Shown here: piece after piece, positions 2,953 through 20,564 of the stretch
Layout: each line of letters begins with the position of its first letter
Numbering within the stretch: position 1 is the stretch's first letter
IMG/VR virus record: IMGVR_UViG_2737471859_000003
Direction: 5' to 3' (one strand)
DNA: 25,277 bases
Origin: a virus
Taxonomy: Duplodnaviria; Heunggongvirae; Uroviricota; Caudoviricetes
Notes under the pieces: model-generated
Databases searched by the model: none
Seen by the model: the letters and a program-made list of their open reading frames with translations, nothing else
What the model was told of the DNA's origin: nothing
Position numbers and translations under genes: made by a program

Positions 2953-3303
2953 TTACTCCCTCAGCGTGATGGTTAATTCAACATTCTGCATGGTCTGCAT
3001 GACAGTGCCCGACAGCGTCACCCCGGCGCGGCCTCCCGCTTTCCAGACAACGTCGATGGCATCCAGGGCAATGCGGGGTTCCCATCGTGTCAGCGCAATC
3101 ACGGCAGCACTCATGCATTGCAGACGCGTGGTGTTATTCATGGGTTCGTCAATCAAATCAGGCACAAGGCTGCCATATTCCCGTCGCATAACCCGGCTTG
3201 CCAGCGGGGTGGTCAGGATGTCCCTGACTGACTGTTTCAGGTGCTCCATATCGTTCAGGTTTCCCGTTCCGTCCGGGTTCATTCCTGTGTAGCGGGTTGT
3301 CAC
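2953..3303 (-). CDS. W: Baseplate wedge protein, P2 gpW-like (gp25/lysozyme-like baseplate family)
   Basis: 116 aa; MTTRYTGMN...SRVMRREYGSL resembles P2 gpW (MTARYLGMN...SRVMRRDYGSL). GTG start per ORF track. Confidence 0.85.
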   Translation of the reverse strand: MTTRYTGMNPDGTGNLNDMEHLKQSVRDILTTPLASRVMRREYGSLVPDLIDEPMNNTTRLQCMSAAVIALTRWEPRIALDAIDVVWKAGGRAGVTLSGTVMQTMQNVELTITLRE

Positions 3304-3881
3304 TGTGGGCCTCCTGTCGAATCGCTGCCGCCTTTCACGCCACCGTGTTTATGCGTATGCACGGTAATGCCGTTTGAGGTGAAGTTGCCGCCGCTGTGCG
3401 TGATATTGCCGCTCATCTTTCCTCCTTTTGTGACGTCAATCGTCGCCGTTCTCAGAAGGTTTGTGCATTCCACGACGGGCGTATCCAGTTTCACGCTGAC
3501 GGATGCCTGTAAAGTGGCCGTTTTCATGCCGCTGGCGCTCAGTGCGCCAGCGTCCGCGTCGTAGCGGAACACCGCGCCGTCCGGCGCGCTGATCACGATT
3601 TCTTTCAGGCTTTTGCCGGGGGCCGGATTGGCATCACTCCACAGGCTGCCAATTATCATGGCGGTTTCCGGGTTGCCGCCAATGCAGGCAATTACCACCT
3701 GTTCGCCGGGTGATGGCGGCAGCCACACATTGAAGGCTCCCGCGCGCGTGGTGTTCCAGCGCAACCAGCCTGTTTCCAGTTCGCCGCTGCGAACGCGCAC
3801 GCGCCAGGACTTCTCATCAACTTCAGAGATGATCCCGGTGCGGATGATATTGCTCAGCAGTCGCATGAGTTCTGCGCTCAC
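3300..3881 (-). CDS. V: Baseplate spike/assembly protein, P2 gpV-like
   Basis: 193 aa; IIRTGII...VHTHKHGG motifs resemble P2 gpV; start overlaps the gpS stop. Confidence 0.85.
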   Translation of the reverse strand: MSAELMRLLSNIIRTGIISEVDEKSWRVRVRSGELETGWLRWNTTRAGAFNVWLPPSPGEQVVIACIGGNPETAMIIGSLWSDANPAPGKSLKEIVISAPDGAVFRYDADAGALSASGMKTATLQASVSVKLDTPVVECTNLLRTATIDVTKGGKMSGNITHSGGNFTSNGITVHTHKHGGVKGGSDSTGGPQ

Positions 3882-4513
3882 CGTACAGCCTCCGCAATCC
3901 GGCCCAGCACCGTGTTATAAATCAGGCGCTCATCTGCCTGGCTGATACCCAGCAGCTCACGTGCCGGGTAATTGGTGAAAATGCCCGGCGCAACCTGATC
4001 GCGCTCACCGAACTGATGAACGCGGGCAATACGTGCGGCCACGCCGCTGTAACCCACCGTCACACCGGAAGCATCTGCACGGGCTTTCAGGTAGCGGGCG
4101 GTGCGCAGTTTTACGAACATGGGGACGCGCTTTGTGCTGTCCTGGTTGATGCGCCGGGTGCGTATTTCCAGAAAACGGTCGATGTCATCCCGGTAAAACG
4201 TGCGGATATTGTTTTTATCCTCATCCCACCCGGTAATGGTTCGCCCGTATTTCCCCGTGTCGTGATGCCAGTTTTTCAGCGTGCGTGCTTCGTTATTCCA
4301 GATAAAGCGAATGCGTTCCTGTATCCGGGTTACGCGGCGTCTGCGTGGTGTCCACGCGGTCCCGTCCGGCGCTTTCTGTGACCGGATACGCGCCTGCTGG
4401 GCGCGGCGTAAATCCTGTGCCAGCTTTCTGGCGATGTTATTGATGGCCTGCTGACTCAGGCTGTCGCGGATGGCCTCAAAGGTTTCATCCACGCGGGTGA
4501 ATGCCTTATCCAT
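3878..4513 (-). CDS. S: Tail completion / virion morphogenesis protein, P2 gpS-like
   Basis: ORF frame 3878..4522; ATG at 4513 preceded by GGGGTGA. Position R-S-V as in P2. Start uncertain (GTG at 4522 is the alternative). Confidence 0.7.
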   Translation of the reverse strand: MDKAFTRVDETFEAIRDSLSQQAINNIARKLAQDLRRAQQARIRSQKAPDGTAWTPRRRRVTRIQERIRFIWNNEARTLKNWHHDTGKYGRTITGWDEDKNNIRTFYRDDIDRFLEIRTRRINQDSTKRVPMFVKLRTARYLKARADASGVTVGYSGVAARIARVHQFGERDQVAPGIFTNYPARELLGISQADERLIYNTVLGRIAEAVR

Positions 4514-9938: not shown

Positions 9939-11690
9939 ATGATTCAGGACGCTTTTGTGCGCCAGCGTGCGCGGCAACTTTACTGGCAGGGTTATCCGCC
10001 CGCAGAAATATCACGTCTGATGGGAATAAACCCGAACACGATTTATGCGTGGAAAAAACGTGACCAGTGGGATGAAACGCCACCCGTGCAGCGTGTCACG
10101 CAGTCCATCGATGCGCGCCTCATCCAGCTTACTGAAAAACAGAATAAAACAGGCGGTGACTTTAAGGAAATAGACCTGCTGACCCGGCAGCTTAAAAAGC
10201 TGCATGATGGCCAGCCGGATGTGATGGCCGCAGGAAAGAAAGGCCGGGCGAAAAAACTCAAAAATCATTTCACGCCGGAACAGATTGCCGCACTGCGGGA
10301 AAAAATCATCAGCAGGCTGGAGTGGCATCAGCGTGGCTGGTTTGACTCCCTTACCCTTTGCAGGGAAGCCGGGATACGTAACAGGATGATCCTGAAATCC
10401 CGACAGATTGGGGCGACCTGGTATTTTGCACAGGAAGCACTGCTGATGGCGCTGCGTGACGATGTGGCGCAACCTTACCAGCGTAACCAGATTTTTTTGT
10501 CTGCGTCGCGTCGTCAGGCGTTCCAGTTTAAAAGCATTATTCAGAAGGCCGCGGCTGAAGTTGATGTGGAGCTGAAAGGGGGCGATAAAATCATCCTCTC
10601 AAACGGCGCAGAGCTGCATTTTCTCGGCACTTCTGCTGCGTCGGCACAGTCCTATACGGGCAATTTTTATTTTGATGAATTTTTCTGGGTCAGTCGCTTT
10701 GCTGAACTGCGCAAGGTGGCTGGCGCGATGGCAACCCTCAGCGGACTGCGGCGCACCTACTTCTCCACGCCATCCACCGAAACGCACGAGGCATACGCCT
10801 ACTGGAACGGCGACCGCTGGAACGAGAAAAAGGCCGCGCATAAACGCCAGCATTTTTCTGTGGACTGGAAAACGCTGCATAACGGGCTTATCTGCCCCGA
10901 CCGGACGTGGCGGCAAATTGTCACGCTGGAAGATGTGGTTAATCACGGCTGGAAACACACCGATATCGACGAAATTCGTGATGAAAACACCGAAGACGAG
11001 TTTCTCAATCTCTATATGTGTGAGTTTGTCCGCGAAGGGGAATCGGCATTTAACCTGAATATCCTGATTGGCTGCGGCGTTGACGGGTACGACGACTGGA
11101 AAGACTGGAAACCTTTTGCTCCCCGCCCGATGGGGAATCGTCCGGTATGGATTGGGTATGACGCAAACGGCAGCAGCGGCAACGGCGACAGCGGCGCTGT
11201 GTCCGTGGTGGTTCCTCCGGCTGTTCCTGGTGGCCGTTTTCGAACGGTGGAGACGCGACGCGTTCAGGGGCTGGAGTTTGAAGAACAGGCCAGAGTCATT
11301 GAAGAGTTCACGTATCGCTACAACGTGGAACACATCGGCATTGATGTGACGGGCGGGAACGGGGAGGCTGTTTATCAGATAGTGAAACGGTTTTTCCCTG
11401 CTGCTATTCCGTACACCTTCACGCTGTCATCAAAACGGTCGCTGGTACTGAAAATGCTGCAAATAATGCGTGCCGGGCGGTGGGAATACGATCGCGCCGA
11501 ACGCGAGCTGGTCGCGGCCTTTAACGCCGTGCGTAAGGTGAAAACACCGGGCGGCTTTATCACTTACGAAACGGACCGCGCGAGGGGGATCAGCCACGGC
11601 GACCTTGCGTGGGCAACCATGCTTGCTGTCATTAACGAACCGATTGGCGGCGAAGGAGAAAACGAGCGTTTCACGGTTATGGAGTTCTGA
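9939..11690 (+). CDS. P: Terminase large (ATPase) subunit, P2 gpP-like
   Basis: 583 aa (P2 gpP ~590 aa); GGGGGAG Shine-Dalgarno before ATG 9939; stop overlaps the Q start by 1 nt (TGATG). Confidence 0.9.
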   Translation: MIQDAFVRQRARQLYWQGYPPAEISRLMGINPNTIYAWKKRDQWDETPPVQRVTQSIDARLIQLTEKQNKTGGDFKEIDLLTRQLKKLHDGQPDVMAAGKKGRAKKLKNHFTPEQIAALREKIISRLEWHQRGWFDSLTLCREAGIRNRMILKSRQIGATWYFAQEALLMALRDDVAQPYQRNQIFLSASRRQAFQFKSIIQKAAAEVDVELKGGDKIILSNGAELHFLGTSAASAQSYTGNFYFDEFFWVSRFAELRKVAGAMATLSGLRRTYFSTPSTETHEAYAYWNGDRWNEKKAAHKRQHFSVDWKTLHNGLICPDRTWRQIVTLEDVVNHGWKHTDIDEIRDENTEDEFLNLYMCEFVREGESAFNLNILIGCGVDGYDDWKDWKPFAPRPMGNRPVWIGYDANGSSGNGDSGAVSVVVPPAVPGGRFRTVETRRVQGLEFEEQARVIEEFTYRYNVEHIGIDVTGGNGEAVYQIVKRFFPAAIPYTFTLSSKRSLVLKMLQIMRAGRWEYDRAERELVAAFNAVRKVKTPGGFITYETDRARGISHGDLAWATMLAVINEPIGGEGENERFTVMEF

Positions 11691-12736: not shown

Positions 12737-12752
12737 TGGGGCTGTCCTTTTT
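12721..12752. terminator. Bidirectional rho-independent terminator shared by convergent Q and the 174-aa gene
   Basis: AAAAA-ACAGCCCC-GTGAT-GGGGCTGT-CCTTTTT: an 8-bp GC-rich stem with a 5-nt loop, flanked by an A-run and a T-run. The Q stop codon lies in the loop. Confidence 0.7.
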
Positions 12753-13275
12753 ACCAGAGTTGAACCATTTTCTGGGTGCCGTCAGGCTTGAGATTATCAA
12801 TTTCAGAGAGAACGTAATATTGAATGGCTTCACAAACGGTGGTGTAGGGTGAATTACCTTCTTTAAGTGGCACGATATTATTATTAACGCGAACCTGTAT
12901 TTCATCGTTATACATTGCGATCGAAACAGGAGTGTGTACGAACGCGACTTCGCCAGGTGTGTCGTCAACCACCGTTTCAATACTAAAAGTCAGTTTTCGC
13001 TCATCATTGCTGCCTCGTGCTTTGGGGGTAGCGGCAGGGATCTGGGATAAAGGCATTCTGCGAAATCCTTCGGCTGCTTCCAGTCCACATGAAACGTAAT
13101 GCTGGCGATTACCGTCGCTATCTGTCCAGGTCTGTGATGGCAGCTCCAGCGAGATTTCATAAGCATCAACAATGCCCTGGGCAAGGCGTACAAGCGGGGT
13201 CAGATCTTCATTGCGGCGAAAGCTCTCCTTTACCTGCTCCCGTTTTTCTCTTAACTGCTTGTAATTAATGACCAT
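12751..13275 (-). CDS. Hypothetical protein (174 aa), cargo gene of unknown function
   Basis: ATG at 13275 (MVINYKQLREKREQVK...) 8 nt after GGAGG; open for 174 codons; lower GC than flanking structural genes; no family recognised. Confidence 0.6.
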   Translation of the reverse strand: MVINYKQLREKREQVKESFRRNEDLTPLVRLAQGIVDAYEISLELPSQTWTDSDGNRQHYVSCGLEAAEGFRRMPLSQIPAATPKARGSNDERKLTFSIETVVDDTPGEVAFVHTPVSIAMYNDEIQVRVNNNIVPLKEGNSPYTTVCEAIQYYVLSEIDNLKPDGTQKMVQLW

Positions 13276-13376
13276 AAGACAGCCTCCATTGATTTCTTTG
13301 CTCGTATTTTGCACTTATGAAGTATGGTCGGCAAGGTGCCGTATCGCTGACGCGCTTCGCTTGTCTGCTGCTTCGC

Positions 13377-13401
13377 CGGGGCATAAAAAATTTATGCCCC
13401 G
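13377..13401. repeat. Perfect 25-nt palindrome CGGGGCATAAA-AAA-TTTATGCCCCG
   Basis: Read directly from sequence; 11-bp arms with a 3-nt centre, ~100 bp upstream of the 174-aa gene start. Function unknown. Confidence 0.5.
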
Positions 13402-13806
13402 ACTCTCCAGCTCCTGTATCAATCAGATAATTTCACGACGCCTTCCAGCTTATTGTCATCATCGACGGTCAGGCTCTTACGCAATCCCGCCGTGCTGACT
13501 GCATGTTCTCGTCGCCTCAGTGCGATTTTGACGGCCTTATCAGTCACCCCATCAAATCAAAAGCCCTCACGTATTTTTCACGCTCAGCGAGAGAAAGACA
13601 GCCATTCCGTTGTGTCGCTGCGACATCGTTCAGGGAATGCTGTTTACCCCCTGAAACGCGGGCTGTTCCCCCGTCACCTGCGCGCAGAAAAAGCGCGTTT
13701 TTTTGTGCACGCACGGATCCTTGACCGATCCAGCCGCCATGCGGGCCGGAAGGGCAAAAAGTCGTTCAAAAAAATTGTGCAAATTTGTGCGCTTTTGTGC
13801 AAAGAA

Positions 13807-13829
13807 ATGCCCCTCAAATTGAGGGGCAT
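13807..13829 (-). terminator. Putative terminator hairpin just downstream of the S8 protease gene
   Basis: Perfect palindrome ATGCCCCTCAA-A-TTGAGGGGCAT about 15 nt after the stop at 13844, followed on the minus strand by TTCTTTG. Confidence 0.5.
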
Positions 13830-13843
13830 TATGTCTTGAAGGA

Positions 13844-16069
13844 TTACGAACGAATAGGAATTGATGTTTGCGGTTGAATTGGCACGAGCACCTGATTATA
13901 AGTACGTAAAATTTCGTTATACAGGTCTTGGTGCTTTGATGCCTTAATGGTAATTATAAGAGCATACTTGATTTTTTCTGCCTTATGGCTGGCTATGCTT
14001 GCACCGGCCTCACGAGCGTTATAATGAATGTCAAATACAGGATTTTTTAGAGTTGAACCTAGCATGTTCTTCGAATTATGTAAGACGGTCTCCCATTTGC
14101 CCATGTCAGAACGTCGCTCACTTTCAGTTGAATATTTGGCCAGTTCAAAGAATCCCTTGGTTTCAGCATTTTGTTTTCCGTCTTTGATTTTTGAATCATT
14201 TGGCCGGAATGTCACTTCCAAACCAGCTTTTGTATAGGAAGCTGGGTCTTGTGGATCAGTGGTTGTTGCATAACAGAAAGTTGCCGCTAAGTTTATTCTA
14301 CCTTTCAAGCCACCTTCAGGTATTGGAAGAGGAGCGCGTAAGTATTTTCCTGGTTTCAATTCACCTTGGTAGACGATACGGGCAACACCATCAGGGCTGA
14401 CTATAATGTCGTTCAAGTCTTCAGGAAGTTTTCCCCAGCCAACTTCTGTACAAGGATGATCAAGCTGTTTTGACGCATGAATTAACAAAGCTTTGATTGC
14501 TAGTAGGCTCAAATCGTTCCCTAAAATTGCCCGAACACCAACAGCTGCTCGTAAGGCGTAAGGAGAGGCAAAGCTTGTTCCTAGCTGGGGTATGATTACA
14601 GGCTTCTTACCTTTACCTAAAACATGAAAGTACTCGTCTGTGTCACCACCAAACGCAACTAAATCCGGTTTCATCACGCCAGGACTTCTGCCTGGCCCAA
14701 TGGCGCTATATGGTGCTCGTTTCCATTCCGTATCATTAACTGTATCACAAGCACCAACAGCAAGAGCATTAACGCAATCGGCTGGTACTTGAATTCTTGC
14801 ATTACCAGACTTGCGATCCATTTCTCCATTGTTGCCAACAGCAACAGTCATTAATGTTTCACCATCACTTAACAAATCATCAATAACGGAAGTCCATGCA
14901 TGAACTTCCGTATCTTCAATTGGTAGGTCTGGACCTAAACTTAGATTGATAAACTGATACTGGCGAGACAACAATACCTCTTCAATAAAGCCCAAAGTTC
15001 GATATAGTTCCAGCGGATCTTCTTGGCAGGTCTTGTTGTCCAAAACTCTTAAGTTATCAATATAAGAGTATGGTCTTTTCGCTTCCGATTTATTACTTAT
15101 TGGTCCAAATAAAAAGGCTGAAGACACAGCTAAACCATGCTCTAAACCGTCTGGATCATCCTCTGCATGATCGTCCAAAACTCTATAGGATTTTAACCAT
15201 GGCGATATAGCGTGCTCTGATGGTAAACCACCATCAAGAATCGCAACTTTTATTTCTGAAGATACGGGGCCCTCAGCAGGCAATTTACACTGAGCTAAAG
15301 GACCGTAGTTCCTTTGTATTGGTCTAATCCCACGCAATCTTGGAACCGGTCTTATTACTCGTACAAATGTAAATTTCGCAAGCTTACTAATAGTAATTCT
15401 ATCGGCCTGGATTGGCACGAACCATAATGTACCAGCGGTAAAAGCTAATGAAGTATGTACTTTGATGTTCAAATTTGATGCAAACTGAACAAATTGTTGC
15501 TGAACCAAGTCTTGTTCATTATCTGGCAGTAAATGAACACCAACCTCAAAATACGAAGAATCCTGCTCACCAATGGTAATAATACGCTCTTCGGGTAAAT
15601 AGGCATCGAACCGTTCTATGCGTGCAAAATCAATCGCTTCGTCAGAAAACTCTTTGAGTCCTGACACCCAATGAGGTAACTCTTTGAAGGATTCTCTTTT
15701 ACCAGCAACAAACATTTGTGTCGTAGTTACTTCTGACACAGTAACTTTTCGCTTCCAGCTTTGAGGCGTAATTTTTACCGTCCTGCTGCCAATAGACGTT
15801 AACCCGGTAGACTTAAGCATTTTTGCAGGAAAAAAAGAGCGTGCAATATAGCTCGGATTCAACGTCAACTTAGCCACAGCATAATCATAAGGACATGCCT
15901 GACTGGGTAAATCATCAAAATTTTCTATAGTAGATGCAATTTGCGGCAATAACCGTTGTTTCGATTCGTAAAGAGAATAAACCTCAGCTTTTCCGGGCAC
16001 TCTTTTAGGACCAGGAATATCGCTGGTTAATAATTCGCCGCGTCCAATCAGAAAATTAGTTTTCGCCAT
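13844..16069 (-). CDS. Subtilisin-like (peptidase S8) serine protease, 741 aa, with N- and C-terminal extensions of unknown function; tentatively IetS-like
   Basis: Catalytic triad motifs in subtilase order: Asp in VAILDGG, His in EHGLAVSS, Ser in GTSFASP. AAGGAG Shine-Dalgarno 5 nt before the ATG. AT-rich codon usage unlike the phage backbone. Confidence 0.8.
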   Translation of the reverse strand: MAKTNFLIGRGELLTSDIPGPKRVPGKAEVYSLYESKQRLLPQIASTIENFDDLPSQACPYDYAVAKLTLNPSYIARSFFPAKMLKSTGLTSIGSRTVKITPQSWKRKVTVSEVTTTQMFVAGKRESFKELPHWVSGLKEFSDEAIDFARIERFDAYLPEERIITIGEQDSSYFEVGVHLLPDNEQDLVQQQFVQFASNLNIKVHTSLAFTAGTLWFVPIQADRITISKLAKFTFVRVIRPVPRLRGIRPIQRNYGPLAQCKLPAEGPVSSEIKVAILDGGLPSEHAISPWLKSYRVLDDHAEDDPDGLEHGLAVSSAFLFGPISNKSEAKRPYSYIDNLRVLDNKTCQEDPLELYRTLGFIEEVLLSRQYQFINLSLGPDLPIEDTEVHAWTSVIDDLLSDGETLMTVAVGNNGEMDRKSGNARIQVPADCVNALAVGACDTVNDTEWKRAPYSAIGPGRSPGVMKPDLVAFGGDTDEYFHVLGKGKKPVIIPQLGTSFASPYALRAAVGVRAILGNDLSLLAIKALLIHASKQLDHPCTEVGWGKLPEDLNDIIVSPDGVARIVYQGELKPGKYLRAPLPIPEGGLKGRINLAATFCYATTTDPQDPASYTKAGLEVTFRPNDSKIKDGKQNAETKGFFELAKYSTESERRSDMGKWETVLHNSKNMLGSTLKNPVFDIHYNAREAGASIASHKAEKIKYALIITIKASKHQDLYNEILRTYNQVLVPIQPQTSIPIRS

Positions 16070-16092: not shown

Positions 16093-17214
16093 TTACATTT
16101 TTTGACTGTATTTTCTAATTGTATCCCTACTGACTCCGGTTAAGTCTGATATGGCATGCTGGGATAATTTAGAATTTCTTTTTAGAGTAACTGCAATTTC
16201 TTTACGTTCATTCCTGTCTAATTCTGATAAACCATCTTTAATGAACGACCCAATCAACTCTTCATCTGAGGAAATACCTAAAGCGACCGAACGTCGGAAT
16301 TTGTTGATAGAACGCTCAATATTACTAAAAGATTCATTTTTGAACATAATAGCCAGTAGATCTATCCAACGTGCAAAAATCGCGTAGTCGGGACCTGAAA
16401 AGCGTTTAATTGCTTCTTTAATACTTTCGCTATCTGGCTTCTCAAAATTGAGCACTAAATCAAAACGTCTCCATAGTGCTGGATCAATCAACTCAGCGAA
16501 GTTAGTTGCAGCAAGTAACAAACTAGAAGACGGCCATTCGTCAACCTCCTGGAGTATTACGGTAACAAGTCTTTTTAATTCTCCAACATCAGAATCATCA
16601 CTTCTCTTTTTGGCGATTGAATCAATTTCATCTAACAGAAGAACGCACGGCCCTTTCTTCGCAAAATCTAGAGCTGCCCGAAGGTTATTTCCGCTTTTGC
16701 CCAGATAGCTGCTCATTACTGCCGTTAAATCAAGAACGTAAAAAGGAACCCCTAATTTCTGAGCTAACCAGCTTGCCGTAAGTGTTTTACCTACACCCGG
16801 AGGGCCAACAAAAATGGCAGAGCGTGTTGGTTGTAAGCCGAGAGTCTTGAGGCGATCGATGTGCTTCCGCTCAAGAATAATTTGATCCAGTGAGTCTTCT
16901 ATCTGACTGGACAGTAGAGGTTTGCTCACAATCTTTTCATTTGGTGCTTTAAGCAAGGTAAGCCTTGACTCCTCGTCCACAGGCATGGTTTGAGGCAGCG
17001 CTTGTTTTGGTGCGGTAACCTTACGCAGGCTTTGTGCAGGCTTTTGCGGTTTATTTCGTAGATAAAGATCAAGCTGCTCGGATAGAGCAGGCATAGTTTC
17101 CCGATATTTACGCACCAAGCGAGCGACATATAACCGAACGTCATCATACTGTTCAGTTATTACCAGTCTAACTAGTTGGGCTAAATCTGACTGAATACCA
17201 CCTAAGTCGCCCAT
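16093..17214 (-). CDS. Classical AAA+ ATPase, 373 aa; tentatively IetA-like
   Basis: Walker A GPPGVGKT, Walker B LLLDEID, sensor-1 / second-region-of-homology LLLAATNFAELIDPALWRRFD. The extreme C-terminus LSQHAISDLTGVSRDTIRKY looks like a helix-turn-helix. 23-nt gap to the protease gene suggests an operon. Confidence 0.8.
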   Translation of the reverse strand: MGDLGGIQSDLAQLVRLVITEQYDDVRLYVARLVRKYRETMPALSEQLDLYLRNKPQKPAQSLRKVTAPKQALPQTMPVDEESRLTLLKAPNEKIVSKPLLSSQIEDSLDQIILERKHIDRLKTLGLQPTRSAIFVGPPGVGKTLTASWLAQKLGVPFYVLDLTAVMSSYLGKSGNNLRAALDFAKKGPCVLLLDEIDSIAKKRSDDSDVGELKRLVTVILQEVDEWPSSSLLLAATNFAELIDPALWRRFDLVLNFEKPDSESIKEAIKRFSGPDYAIFARWIDLLAIMFKNESFSNIERSINKFRRSVALGISSDEELIGSFIKDGLSELDRNERKEIAVTLKRNSKLSQHAISDLTGVSRDTIRKYSQKM

Positions 17215-17394
17215 CTTAACTGTAACCTCTTGATTTTAAGTGAATTGAAAAAGCATTTAACTGGACTATTTATAGTATTGCACTTTTTTATCAAACAGGG
17301 AAGAGGAATACTATATGAAATTACAGTGTGCCTCATGGAACGTCCTTACCATGTCTAAACTCTACCTTCATACAATTGATGATTTCTTTCTTGG
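17215..17394 (-). promoter_or_regulatory. AT-rich spacer between gene A and the ATPase gene; probable promoter region of the ATPase-protease operon
   Basis: 180-bp AT-rich non-coding stretch; minus strand contains TTGATA...TATAAAT-like hexamers ~55 nt upstream of the ATPase ATG, but the spacing is suboptimal. Confidence 0.3.
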
Positions 17395-20178
17395 TTATTT
17401 TTTCTTCTCGCTATTGCCTTTGTCCTGCAACAGACCCGCCTTGTGACGTGCGCGTTCAGTGGTTTCATTGATTCTCTGTGCGTGCTCTGCGTCACGGATG
17501 GCGCGCAGCATGTCAGAAAGCACGGTAACGGGAGTTTTCATGGTGTTCTGGTCCTGCTGAATTGTGGATGCCAGGCGTGCAGCGGCTTCAGGGTCTGATG
17601 CCCCGAGCTGTTTCAGATAGCTGGAAACCGGGTTATGGCGGATTTCCGTGCTGTTTACGCCGTGATTACGGCTCAGGCGCTGCCAGAGCTGCGTGATTCG
17701 GCTGTCCGGTCGGGTATCTGGTTTGCGTACAATTTCAAATCCCTGCGGTGCAATGATGCTGCCGTCAACGTACAGACTGCCGCCTCGTAACAGGTGCTGC
17801 ATCTGCTGTTCACCGATATGCAGGCCGAGAGATTCGGCAGATTCCCGCCATTCTTTAGCGAGTAATTCGTGGTTATCAGGCAAAGGCCGCTGCTGTTTGC
17901 GGCTCTGTGTCCAGCTCTGCATTTCATCACTGCTGTTTTTTGCCTGTTTGTCACGAAGCGAACGCATCAGCGCCCGGCGTTCGTGCCGTTTCAGTGAGCG
18001 CATCCATTCGTTCACTTCAACGCCGTCAGGGAGCTGCGGCCACGGTGCTGGCCGTTCTTCCGGCTGTTCTGTCCCGTTGTTGTCCGTTTCCTGTACACGG
18101 GGACAGTTATTGCCACGAGTCCAAGGGGCGGCAGAGCCGCCCTGAAGGTCAAAACCATTTTCGTGGGTGCTGTCTTCCGCTTCCGGTTTACGTCTTACCA
18201 GCTTCCAGTTATCCGGGTGCGTGCACACACGGGAGGATTCCCCGATGAGTGGCGACCAGATCCCGTAAATCTGTACACTCTGTTCGCCGTAATCGTTCAG
18301 CTCATCTGCGAGGTCGTAGGCTGTGCGAATCAGGTAGTCCTTGCGCGGAACAAGTACGCCACCCTGTTTTTCAATGTAGGTGGCAAAACACCCGGCATCA
18401 GCGGCAGCAAGAACCGCATCCATTGCGTCATCCTTCAGCCGTTGCGGGCCCTCCGGGTTGCGTGCCATCTGGCTGGCAAGGCGGCGGAGTTCACGCCACA
18501 CCTGACGGGAGGGGATGCCAAAGAACTGGAACTGGCGGACCCGGTGAAGGCGCGCCCAGCCGATGGCGCGCTCCACGCTCTCGGCCATTGATTTTCCGGT
18601 TTCGTGGTCAACGCGTGGCTTGCCCGTTTTCGGGTCGATGCCATCTACGGCGCGGCTGTCCAGGTTTTTTCCGATGTAGGTCGCGATATAGCTGGTTGGT
18701 GTGCCTTTTGAGCCGTCGACATACTCCGCCTTAAAGCGCGGAGTAATATCATCGCCCAGTTCGTGACGATCTTCCTGAATGGCAATATCGCGGGTGATGG
18801 CCACGATGCTGTCGATTTCTTCCGGATGAGCAAAGACCATCATATGCCAGTGCACGGTGCCGTCATGGTGAGGCTCCACCGTGCGGATGCCATACCAGCG
18901 CAGGCCGTCGCGGTTCAGTTTTTTGCGGACCGCCGCAAAAAACGTGTTAACCAGGTAATCGCTGGAGTCGCGCATGGTGGCCCCGTTCCATTTGGGATTC
19001 GGATGACCGTTCTCCGTTGTTGCGTGGTATTTTGACGGGCAGGTGACAGTCAGAAACACCGCTTTGTCACCACGGGCTTCGGCCAGAAGTTCCAGCCCCT
19101 TCATGGTGGCCATCATTTCTGCCTTACGGTGAACCGGGTTACTTACTCCCGCGTAATACACTGTCTCGAGATCAATCGTGAACCCGTCTTCATTTTCCAG
19201 CATGAAACTTTTCAGGAAATCGCGTGTTTTCTCGCGCTGTGCGCGAAATTCACTTAATGCGTCCTGGCTCAGATAGGGTGATGTTTTTCTGGAAACCAGA
19301 CAGGCGGCGCGAAGTTGTTCTTCTCTCCACTCGCAACGTAAAAGCCACAGTTTGCGTTTCCACCATTCCGCACAGGTCAGGCGAAGGATTGCACCCGGCA
19401 GCAGTTCCGTGTCCGGTTCGTTCCTCCGGTCTTTGTCTGTTGTCAGTGCGTCATAATGCGGAGGCATGGCGTGCAGGTGTAACGCCATGCGGGCCAGCAT
19501 CTGATACGCCTTCAGCGTTACATCCATGGTCAGCTCGCCATCAGTCGCACCAAAGCCATCGCAGAGCTTTTCGAAGGTGCTGCTGAACATCGCCGCCGTC
19601 ATGGTGGCCAGCGTCTGTATCTGGTGTTTGTTGAGCTGCGGCAGGTAAAGCAAATCGTCCAGGCGTTCGCGTCCGGCAATGGAGCGATAACCCGGTGTCA
19701 GCCAGCGGCTGTCGGTGCGGTCCAGACGTCCGAATATTTTGCGCAGGGTTCCGCGTGCATAGCGTTCCGCCTGCCAGCTCTTTTTGCCTTTCTGGCGATC
19801 GGCTTCCTGTTTTTTGCGCAGGAAAGAGAGGTGGCGGCTCAGTGGTTCACGCAGATAAACAGGTAGTGCCTTTAGTGTGGCAAAGGCACGGGCTACCGGG
19901 TCTTGTTCTGTTGCCCGGCGCTTACTGATGATGCTCTGTGCCAGCTTTTCACGCTGTCCGGCTTCCTCAAGGGATGCCATGAGTTTTTTACCCATGGCGG
20001 ATTGTGCGAAAAAGGCTTCTTCCTTCGCTTCCTGTTCTTCCTGTGCCCTTTTGTCCGCCTCAAGGTAGTAACGGATGGCGCGTTGCAGGTCGGTTTCAGT
20101 TTCCTGCCTGCGCTCCGTAAATCTGGCCGGATCAATGGCTGGCCGTGGTTCATTCCAGCTCCATGCAAACTCACTCAT
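17395..20178 (-). CDS. A: Replication initiation endonuclease (rolling-circle, HUH-type), P2 gpA-like
   Basis: ATG at 20178 (MSEFAWSWNEP...) overlaps the upstream gene stop (ATGA). HUH motif in TVHWHMMVF and paired tyrosines in SYIATYIGKN, as in P2/phiX174 A proteins. ~927 aa versus ~761 aa in P2. Confidence 0.8.
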   Translation of the reverse strand: MSEFAWSWNEPRPAIDPARFTERRQETETDLQRAIRYYLEADKRAQEEQEAKEEAFFAQSAMGKKLMASLEEAGQREKLAQSIISKRRATEQDPVARAFATLKALPVYLREPLSRHLSFLRKKQEADRQKGKKSWQAERYARGTLRKIFGRLDRTDSRWLTPGYRSIAGRERLDDLLYLPQLNKHQIQTLATMTAAMFSSTFEKLCDGFGATDGELTMDVTLKAYQMLARMALHLHAMPPHYDALTTDKDRRNEPDTELLPGAILRLTCAEWWKRKLWLLRCEWREEQLRAACLVSRKTSPYLSQDALSEFRAQREKTRDFLKSFMLENEDGFTIDLETVYYAGVSNPVHRKAEMMATMKGLELLAEARGDKAVFLTVTCPSKYHATTENGHPNPKWNGATMRDSSDYLVNTFFAAVRKKLNRDGLRWYGIRTVEPHHDGTVHWHMMVFAHPEEIDSIVAITRDIAIQEDRHELGDDITPRFKAEYVDGSKGTPTSYIATYIGKNLDSRAVDGIDPKTGKPRVDHETGKSMAESVERAIGWARLHRVRQFQFFGIPSRQVWRELRRLASQMARNPEGPQRLKDDAMDAVLAAADAGCFATYIEKQGGVLVPRKDYLIRTAYDLADELNDYGEQSVQIYGIWSPLIGESSRVCTHPDNWKLVRRKPEAEDSTHENGFDLQGGSAAPWTRGNNCPRVQETDNNGTEQPEERPAPWPQLPDGVEVNEWMRSLKRHERRALMRSLRDKQAKNSSDEMQSWTQSRKQQRPLPDNHELLAKEWRESAESLGLHIGEQQMQHLLRGGSLYVDGSIIAPQGFEIVRKPDTRPDSRITQLWQRLSRNHGVNSTEIRHNPVSSYLKQLGASDPEAAARLASTIQQDQNTMKTPVTVLSDMLRAIRDAEHAQRINETTERARHKAGLLQDKGNSEKKK

Positions 20179-20564
20179 GGCTGGTATCCCGTCACGCGCT
20201 GCCACTCCTGCGAGAAGATGGCGGAAAGGCGGTTAAATTCAGCGGTGTATTCACTCAGCGAGGCACACCCGCCAGCAGTGCGATGCGCCAGCATTGCCGC
20301 AAATACGGAGGCCGGGGAGTCATAATACGCCAGCAGTGATTCGCCGTGTGGTGTCAGGCAGTGCAACGCCAGCCCGTGTGGTGTGAAATCCACGCGGTAG
20401 CAGTCGTCTACTGTGAAATAAAGGGTGTCCGCATTCTCCGGTTTTGTGGTGCGTGCTCTGTTGTCACGACCACGGATGTAGAGATCAAATAATCCCTGAA
20501 GAATGGGAGCCAGACGGGTGTCCTGTGTGCGCACCCATCTTGTGAAGTCATGAGCGTCAATCAT
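20175..20564 (-). CDS. Hypothetical early-operon protein (129 aa)
   Basis: ATG start; stop overlaps the A start codon, implying translational coupling; no family recognised. Confidence 0.55.
   Translation of the reverse strand: MIDAHDFTRWVRTQDTRLAPILQGLFDLYIRGRDNRARTTKPENADTLYFTVDDCYRVDFTPHGLALHCLTPHGESLLAYYDSPASVFAAMLAHRTAGGCASLSEYTAEFNRLSAIFSQEWQRVTGYQP

Follow-up and report, generated by a model that had tools for sequence, protein, structure and literature searches.

The AAA+ ATPase of the IetAS anti-phage system ends in a conserved helix-turn-helix predicted to recognize operators at its own promoter and start codon

IetAS has been validated as a system that protects against phages and stabilises plasmids (PMC13069673). 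The described versions, namely IetAS (the pTiC58 iet locus; Gao_Iet) and its SGI1 homologue SgiAT, share the same operon, in which the gene for an AAA+ ATPase is followed by that for an S8 subtilase, and both are found on mobile elements. Experiments on homologues identified it as an anti-phage system, and in these the ATPase was reported to be the antitoxin and the S8 protease the toxin (PMC13069673, PMC5006074). The anti-phage mechanism and the trigger have been described as unknown (PMC13069673). The authors of the SGI1 study read their sgiAT data as a need for positive activation (PMC5006074). In the searchable literature we found no mention of a helix-turn-helix (HTH), of DNA binding or of autoregulation in connection with IetA or SgiA, though an earlier description may exist. 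Neither the system nor the type of domain is new; what appears to be undescribed is the family-wide HTH, its operator, and the correspondence between residues of the former and bases of the latter.

The locus analyzed here is part of a window of 25,277 nucleotides of viral DNA (IMG/VR record IMGVR_UViG_2737471859_000003), which is the whole stretch to which all coordinates refer (Table 1). The 373-aa product of its ietA gene matches the PADLOC profile PDLC02196 with E=1e-77, residues 9-372 aligning to positions 5-370 of the 374 in the profile. Together with the subtilase gene downstream, whose product likewise matches its PADLOC profile along the full length, it is the known IetA-IetS pair, situated in the variable hotspot between the gpA and portal genes of a P2-like E. 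coli prophage. The initial annotation of this DNA had spoken of an ATPase partnered with a protease; the pair is indeed present, but its identity as the known system, evident from PADLOC, had gone unrecognized. Against the NCBIfam IteA_antiphage model (NF042959) IetA scores 223 bits (E=5e-66), below the equivalog cut-off of 510 bits, and IetS scores 137 bits against the IteS equivalog, for which the cut-off is 900. The pair thus represents a divergent subfamily, belonging to the family without being an NCBI equivalog. Compared with IetAS and SgiAT the locus shows no essential difference, and its C-terminal HTH and operator are the part that has apparently escaped description.

The neighbors of ietAS in the window are a P2-type replication protein with a Phage_GPA domain (17395-20205), a portal protein, a terminase and an integrase. 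Of 5426 complete E. coli genomes, 43 have this same insertion between genes annotated as "replication endonuclease" and "phage portal protein". The gpA-type protein, encoded on the minus strand, has 936 aa, of which the Phage_GPA domain covers only residues 194-518, followed by a C-terminal extension of about 400 residues without a domain match. The large terminase subunit has an N-terminal HTH_23/gpP-like ATPase-subunit domain (Terminase_5; 9939-10130, plus strand), which is ordinary in P2-type terminases. The same hotspot holds, between the portal gene and ietS, a 187-aa ORF (12751-13314, minus strand) that is separated from ietS by a non-coding gap of 530 bp (13315-13843); it is annotated as "hypothetical protein" in E. 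coli M1/5 and has no match in Pfam or NCBIfam. In E. coli E06 (NZ_CM143910.1, 1650255-1655610) an otherwise identical locus is recovered in two pieces, and an IS5-like ISKpn26 transposase and two S8-peptidase fragments are annotated under the match, the protease gene probably being disrupted in this strain. For comparison, we fetched 80 ietA loci from many phyla. In nearly all of these ietS lies directly downstream of ietA; one locus (L064) has no IetS match, and a few others have partial or more distant ones.

Table 1. Features of the ietAS locus in the 25,277-nt window
Feature	Position	Strand	Basis or remark
ietA, classical-clade AAA+ ATPase with C-terminal HTH, 373 aa	16093..17214	-	PADLOC, Pfam, NCBIfam, Foldseek
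ietS, S8 (subtilase) peptidase, 741 aa, 23 nt downstream of ietA	13844..16069	-	PADLOC IetS E=6.7e-52; Pfam Peptidase_S8 E=2.5e-19
Tri-helical HTH domain, residues 334-373	16096..16215	-	AlphaFold2, sub-threshold Pfam matches, homologous tails, PDB profile matches
HTH helix 2, residues 352-359 (QHAISDLT)	16138..16161	-	AlphaFold2, conservation
Predicted recognition helix, residues 363-372 (RDTIRKYSQK)	16099..16128	-	AlphaFold2, conservation, hhalign
Exact candidate operator half-site TAGTCCA	17262..17268	-	54 nt before ietA ATG; 5 nt downstream of inferred -10
Near-consensus inverted pair TGGGCGA-N23-TAGCCCA (O2), start codon to codon 13	17177..17213	-	Family motif
Inferred promoter: -35 TTCCCT (17297-17302), 17-nt spacer, TG (17281-17282), -10 AATACT (17274-17279)	17274..17302	-	Phylogenetic footprint
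Weak additional site CGTTCCA at -128, one mismatch	17336..17342	-	Motif match
Inverted repeat ATATAGTATT/AATACTATA, bracketing -35 and overlapping -10	17271..17315		Not the IetA family motif

In IetA, an N-terminal helical domain precedes a classical AAA+ module, and a small tri-helical HTH follows the lid of the latter. The Pfam AAA domain (PF00004) is found in residues 134-258 (E=2.6e-30), and the protein shows the features of the AAA+ core, namely Walker A, Walker B, sensor 1 and the arginine fingers, with G137, G140, G142, K143, D198, N238 and R250 invariant in an alignment of 106 sequences. Its structural neighbors in Foldseek searches are the D1 domain of p97, FtsH and the Rpt subunits. 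The Pfam scan recovered PF00004 and generic AAA families, Sigma54_activat (PF00158, with its GAFTGA loop) being absent from it. A pore-loop-like S-Y-L-G is seen after Walker A at residues 169-172 (16699-16710, minus strand), and S168, S169, L171 and G172 are nearly invariant in the family. This motif suggests that IetA threads a substrate, possibly IetS.

The peptide KLSQHAISDLTGVSRDTIRKYSQKM forms residues 349-373 of IetA, and positions 16093-16095 are the stop codon. Among relatives at 64-95% identity, L344, L350, Q352, S356, T359 and S362-K368 are invariant, and beyond K368 the tails vary freely in length and composition. Few parts of the protein are conserved as well across the family as the tail motif SQ..S.LTGVSRDTIRK, which persists in 122 cluster representatives at 35-58% identity; in the alignment of 106 sequences, which spans 34-95% identity, R363 is the sole invariant residue outside the ATPase/nucleotide-binding core, and T365 is more than 90% conserved. 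The profile search that had been proposed for the last 60 residues gave a divided result, in that IetA itself stays below the gathering score of every Pfam HTH model (HTH_24 18.2 versus 21.9 bits, HTH_11 18.2 versus 25), but 17 Pfam HTH families match this segment with E of 0.002-0.17, all in one shared register. In the tails of homologs HTH_23 matches 32 of 79 (best E=2.7e-10) and HTH_7 matches 18 of 79, with HTH_psq (8.9e-10), HTH_29 (9.2e-9) and HTH_28 also recovered. When a profile of these 79 tails was compared with the PDB, the best matches were all DNA-binding HTHs, including the DeoR DNA-binding domain (2.7e-4), a Fis-like domain (4.2e-4) and the IS21 transposase IstA.

The IetA motif SQ...TGVSRDTIRK is in register with NQ...MGINRGTLRKK of Fis, and hhalign places R363, T365 and R367-K368 opposite R85, T87 and R89-K90 of Fis, which we take to be DNA-contacting residues. 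The Pfam model HTH_8 matches only 2 of the 79 tails, whereas HTH_23 and HTH_7 match most often; the HTHs of serine recombinases and transposases (HTH_7, HTH_23, HTH_28) are among the closest known counterparts of the IetA tail. AlphaFold2 predicts, for the full protein, helices at residues 334-347, 352-359 and 363-372 that follow the lid helices (pLDDT ~97), and the same three helices for the isolated tail (pLDDT 94); helices 2 and 3 are joined by a tight turn that contains G360. These confident helices argue that the tail is neither disordered nor part of the AAA lid, the outcome that would have spoken against an HTH. Fold searches with the 60-residue tail model were compatible with an HTH, though not discriminating.

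These observations confirm, at the level of sequence and structural model, that IetA ends in a conserved HTH of about 40 residues. The HTH that had been proposed at this C-terminus is hence upheld on four independent grounds, namely the Pfam matches in one register, the conservation together with the homologous tails, the AlphaFold2 models and the PDB profile matches; the residue pattern offered for it was in the correct register, except that its "IA" should read IS, and its extent (16093-16200) was correctly located, though the domain begins slightly upstream, at residue 334 (16215). Database entries that lack the tail could have suggested a tail-less subfamily; we rejected this, as these short entries seem to be truncated or frameshifted sequences. 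A distant IetA-like ATPase with an S8 peptidase downstream is found on pRi plasmids of Rhizobium rhizogenes (pRi1724; 2983-4107 of locus L088). Its C-terminus is likewise an HTH (GVSRQAIYAYLKQ), whose recognition helix differs, and no obvious TnGTCCA sites are seen upstream. The plasmid pTiC58 was not among the 40 plasmid matches listed.

An unbiased count of k-mers in the 150 nt upstream of ietA recovered TAGTCCA/GTGGACTA in 28 of 77 loci, the maximum in mononucleotide-shuffled upstream regions being 14. The density of T-N-[GT]-TCCA across 79 loci is 8.8 per kb in the 160 nt upstream of ietA against 1.28 per kb elsewhere, an approximately 7-fold difference. The enriched half-site, seen in loci from many phyla, can be typed as T[AC]GTCCA (7 bp). 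In 31 of 79 loci it forms an inverted (-,+) pair in the fixed arrangement GTGGACnA...TnGTCCAC, and 25 of the 32 upstream inverted pairs are spaced by exactly 30-31 nt. The right arm of the pair lies about 45-55 nt before the ietA start codon, and a half-site in its orientation recurs 40-60 nt upstream across phyla, at -51 to -55 in the closest beta/gamma-proteobacterial relatives. The beta/gamma-proteobacterial loci display a conserved -35 and TG-extended -10 footprint, with the right arm starting 4-5 nt past the -10; typically the pair brackets the inferred promoter, such that the left arm lies over the -35 region and the right arm at the transcription start. Upstream of ietA in three loci with the recognition helix ISRPTVKK (L057, L066 and L069), the control region contains four to seven GGTAA/TTACC sites, some of them direct repeats and most of them spaced by about 20 nt, unlike the 30-nt inverted pair.

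Pairs of equal spacing that had been counted as background all proved to lie at +1/+31 of ietA, with the form aTGGA[AC]GA-N23-TT[AC]GTCCA. The exact version of this intragenic pair is present in 12 loci and runs from the start codon to codons 12-13. The codons underlying its right arm are strongly skewed, codon 12 (Val) being GTC in 20 of 23 genes (6.8 expected from each gene's own usage, p=2e-8) and codon 11 (Leu) being TTA or CTA in 20 of 22 (7.1 expected, p=2e-8). Judged from this codon usage, the start-codon pair is preserved by biased codon choice.

The half-site varies with the second residue of the predicted recognition helix (D364 in IetA), reading GTCCA with D, TTCCA with E, ATCCA with N and TACCA with P or A. 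GTCCA occurs at 53 of the 57 loci with RDT helices and at 1 of the 14 with E, P or A helices (p=5e-10); TCTTCCA without GTCCA is seen with 5 of 6 RET helices compared to 1 of 57 loci (p=5e-6); and TACCA accompanies all 8 of the [RH]-[PA]-T helices as against 2 of 63 loci (p=4e-9). These p-values are optimistic, as the loci were counted as independent despite their shared ancestry. In the sole locus with an RNT helix (L060), TGATCCA occupies the upstream as well as the intragenic position. D364 is hence the specificity-correlated residue of IetA. Upstream DNA is not alignable at the distances seen within the family, and where the upstream site changes, so does the intragenic one. This, in conjunction with the covariation, provides the strongest argument that the HTH itself reads the half-sites, and indicates, from sequence comparisons, that it is a sequence-specific DNA-binding domain whose recognition helix would read half-sites of the T[AC]GTCCA type.

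The control region of ietA in the window shows a reduced form of this arrangement, with one exact half-site at the start site and the near-consensus O2 pair over the start codon. Each arm of O2 has one mismatch to the family consensus, and it is the only near-consensus pair in the 25-kb window. The left arm expected 30 nt upstream of the exact TAGTCCA is absent, its place being taken by the -35-like TTCCCT, and it is likewise missing in the clade to which the locus belongs. Same-orientation sites at -121 to -131 in several other loci lend weak support to the additional CGTTCCA. A scan of the region with the sigma-70 consensus showed no enrichment (7 matches found versus 7.3 expected from shuffles) and proposed an overlapping alternative promoter, TTGATA-18-AATAGT; since the hexamer pair differs as well, the promoter is assigned from conservation only. 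The elements ATATAGTATT and AATACTATA form a perfect inverted repeat of 9-10 bp (17271-17285 and 17301-17315), which is conserved in the P2-borne ietAS loci of Salmonella, Serratia and, in part, Klebsiella, and is absent from a non-P2 Salmonella locus. As a family operator this repeat was rejected, since it occurs only in enterobacterial loci carried by P2-type phages and is unlike the cross-phylum motif; it may be the site for a second, phage-encoded regulator.

We consider it probable, from the comparative sequence evidence, that IetA, as an AAA+ antitoxin with sequence-specific DNA binding, represses its own operon, ietAS. Its HTHs would occupy the sites over the promoter, the start site and the start codon, and the bound protein would occlude RNA polymerase and the early transcribed region, thereby repressing the operon in a manner resembling the DNA-binding antitoxins of type II toxin-antitoxin (TA) systems. 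A spacing of 30 bp corresponds to about 100 A and three helical turns, which is too wide for a compact dimer; speculatively, it could be spanned by HTHs from different protomers of the IetA ring. We infer DNA binding by IetA, repression as its consequence and the ring-spanning of 30 bp, the choice of repression over activation being drawn only from the position of the sites. The absence of the upstream left arm in the window, the single mismatch in each start-codon arm and the sub-threshold Pfam scores of the HTH run against autoregulation.

HTH antitoxins of type II TA systems autorepress through palindromic operators in their own promoters. IetA would share with them (HigA, MqsA and Xre-type antitoxins) an HTH on the antitoxin and, by prediction, palindromic operators in its own promoter and autorepression. 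Unlike these small and labile proteins, IetA is a 373-aa ATP-driven machine, its half-sites lie 30 bp apart whereas theirs are adjacent, and it has a second predicted operator inside the coding sequence. DnaA, which autoregulates its own promoter, and the enhancer-binding proteins of the NtrC family likewise have, C-terminal to an AAA+ module, a small HTH that reads short repeated boxes. In contrast to these, which belong respectively to the initiator and the sigma-54 activator clades, the ATPase of IetA belongs to the classical clade typified by p97, FtsH and Rpt, and it lacks the sigma-54 interaction domain of the NtrC type.

That the HTH binds the same sites as an activator or a dual regulator, in the manner of the AAA+ enhancer-binding proteins with Fis-type HTHs, appears quite unlikely. 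Such a role would be consistent with the order of the AAA+ module and the HTH, with the Fis-like register of the motif, with the overlap of the left arm and the -35 region, which is a binding position of class II activators too, and with the suggestion of the SGI1 authors that sgiAT requires positive activation (PMC5006074). Yet the right arm falls at or just after the -10 and the start site, and the second pair over the start codon, all of which are positions typical of repressors, and the classical AAA domain (PF00004) is accompanied by no match to a sigma-54 interaction domain. The autoregulator, one of the two roles suggested in the initial annotation, gains support from the inverted repeats conserved around the promoter and over the start codon and from their covariation with the helix. 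The other role, that of a nucleic-acid sensor, remains unsupported, the cognate sites having been found only in IetA's own control region. In its explicit form, this reading has IetA binding phage DNA and thereby releasing or activating the IetS protease, and we regard it as very unlikely, even though a DNA-binding-type domain on a defence ATPase and the unknown trigger of the anti-phage activity (PMC13069673) might recommend it. A single 7-bp specificity would be unexpected in a protein that has to sense phages of diverse kinds. The recognition helix, conserved across phyla, covaries with sites in the system's own promoter, and the 25-kb prophage window contains no other consensus pair.

The repeats could instead act at the level of RNA, as a leader hairpin sequestering the start codon, or bind another factor, with the tail being an HTH-like interface for protein-protein interactions, for instance with IetS. 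Two observations are in line with this idea, namely the complementarity of the start-codon arm to both the downstream arm and the site at -54, and the symmetric change, TGGGCGA/TAGCCCA, that both start-codon arms share in the clade of the window. It is nonetheless highly improbable, given that the identity of the half-site follows a residue of the recognition helix and that conservation extends to the sequence itself, beyond mere complementarity. Moreover, in the beta/gamma-proteobacterial loci with a footprinted promoter the left arm, 30 nt upstream of the right one, would fall on the -35 region and hence would not be transcribed; the arms differ at positions 2-3 in several loci, implying that pairing is not maintained; and the leader RNA of the window folds no better than its shuffled versions (z=+1.56).

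Beyond the autoregulation favored here, an unlikely extension would make IetA a ring seated on DNA. Protomers facing each other across an AAA+ hexamer would use their HTHs to grip half-sites some 100 A (30 bp) from one another, at the promoter and likewise over the start codon, with operator occupancy coupled to the ATPase and antitoxin activities. Stripping of IetA from the DNA, or a halt to its resynthesis, would then free IetS, and host DNA degradation, transcription shut-off or decoy DNA during infection could serve as triggers. If this were true, the HTH would help to decide when the defence is triggered, going beyond housekeeping autoregulation.

On the whole, residue 364 corresponds to the half-site in a simple way, D going with G, E with T, N with A, and P or A with TA. 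This residue-to-base correspondence provides the field with handles in the form of point mutants of R363, D364 and T365, defined DNA probes and specificity swaps, which would separate regulation from neutralisation and help to find out whether activation involves a loss of DNA binding. The predicted operator within the coding sequence would be strong enough to constrain codon choice across phyla, and IetA brings the classical clade into the small group of AAA+ ATPases that carry an HTH at the C-terminus, exemplified by DnaA and the NtrC-type proteins.
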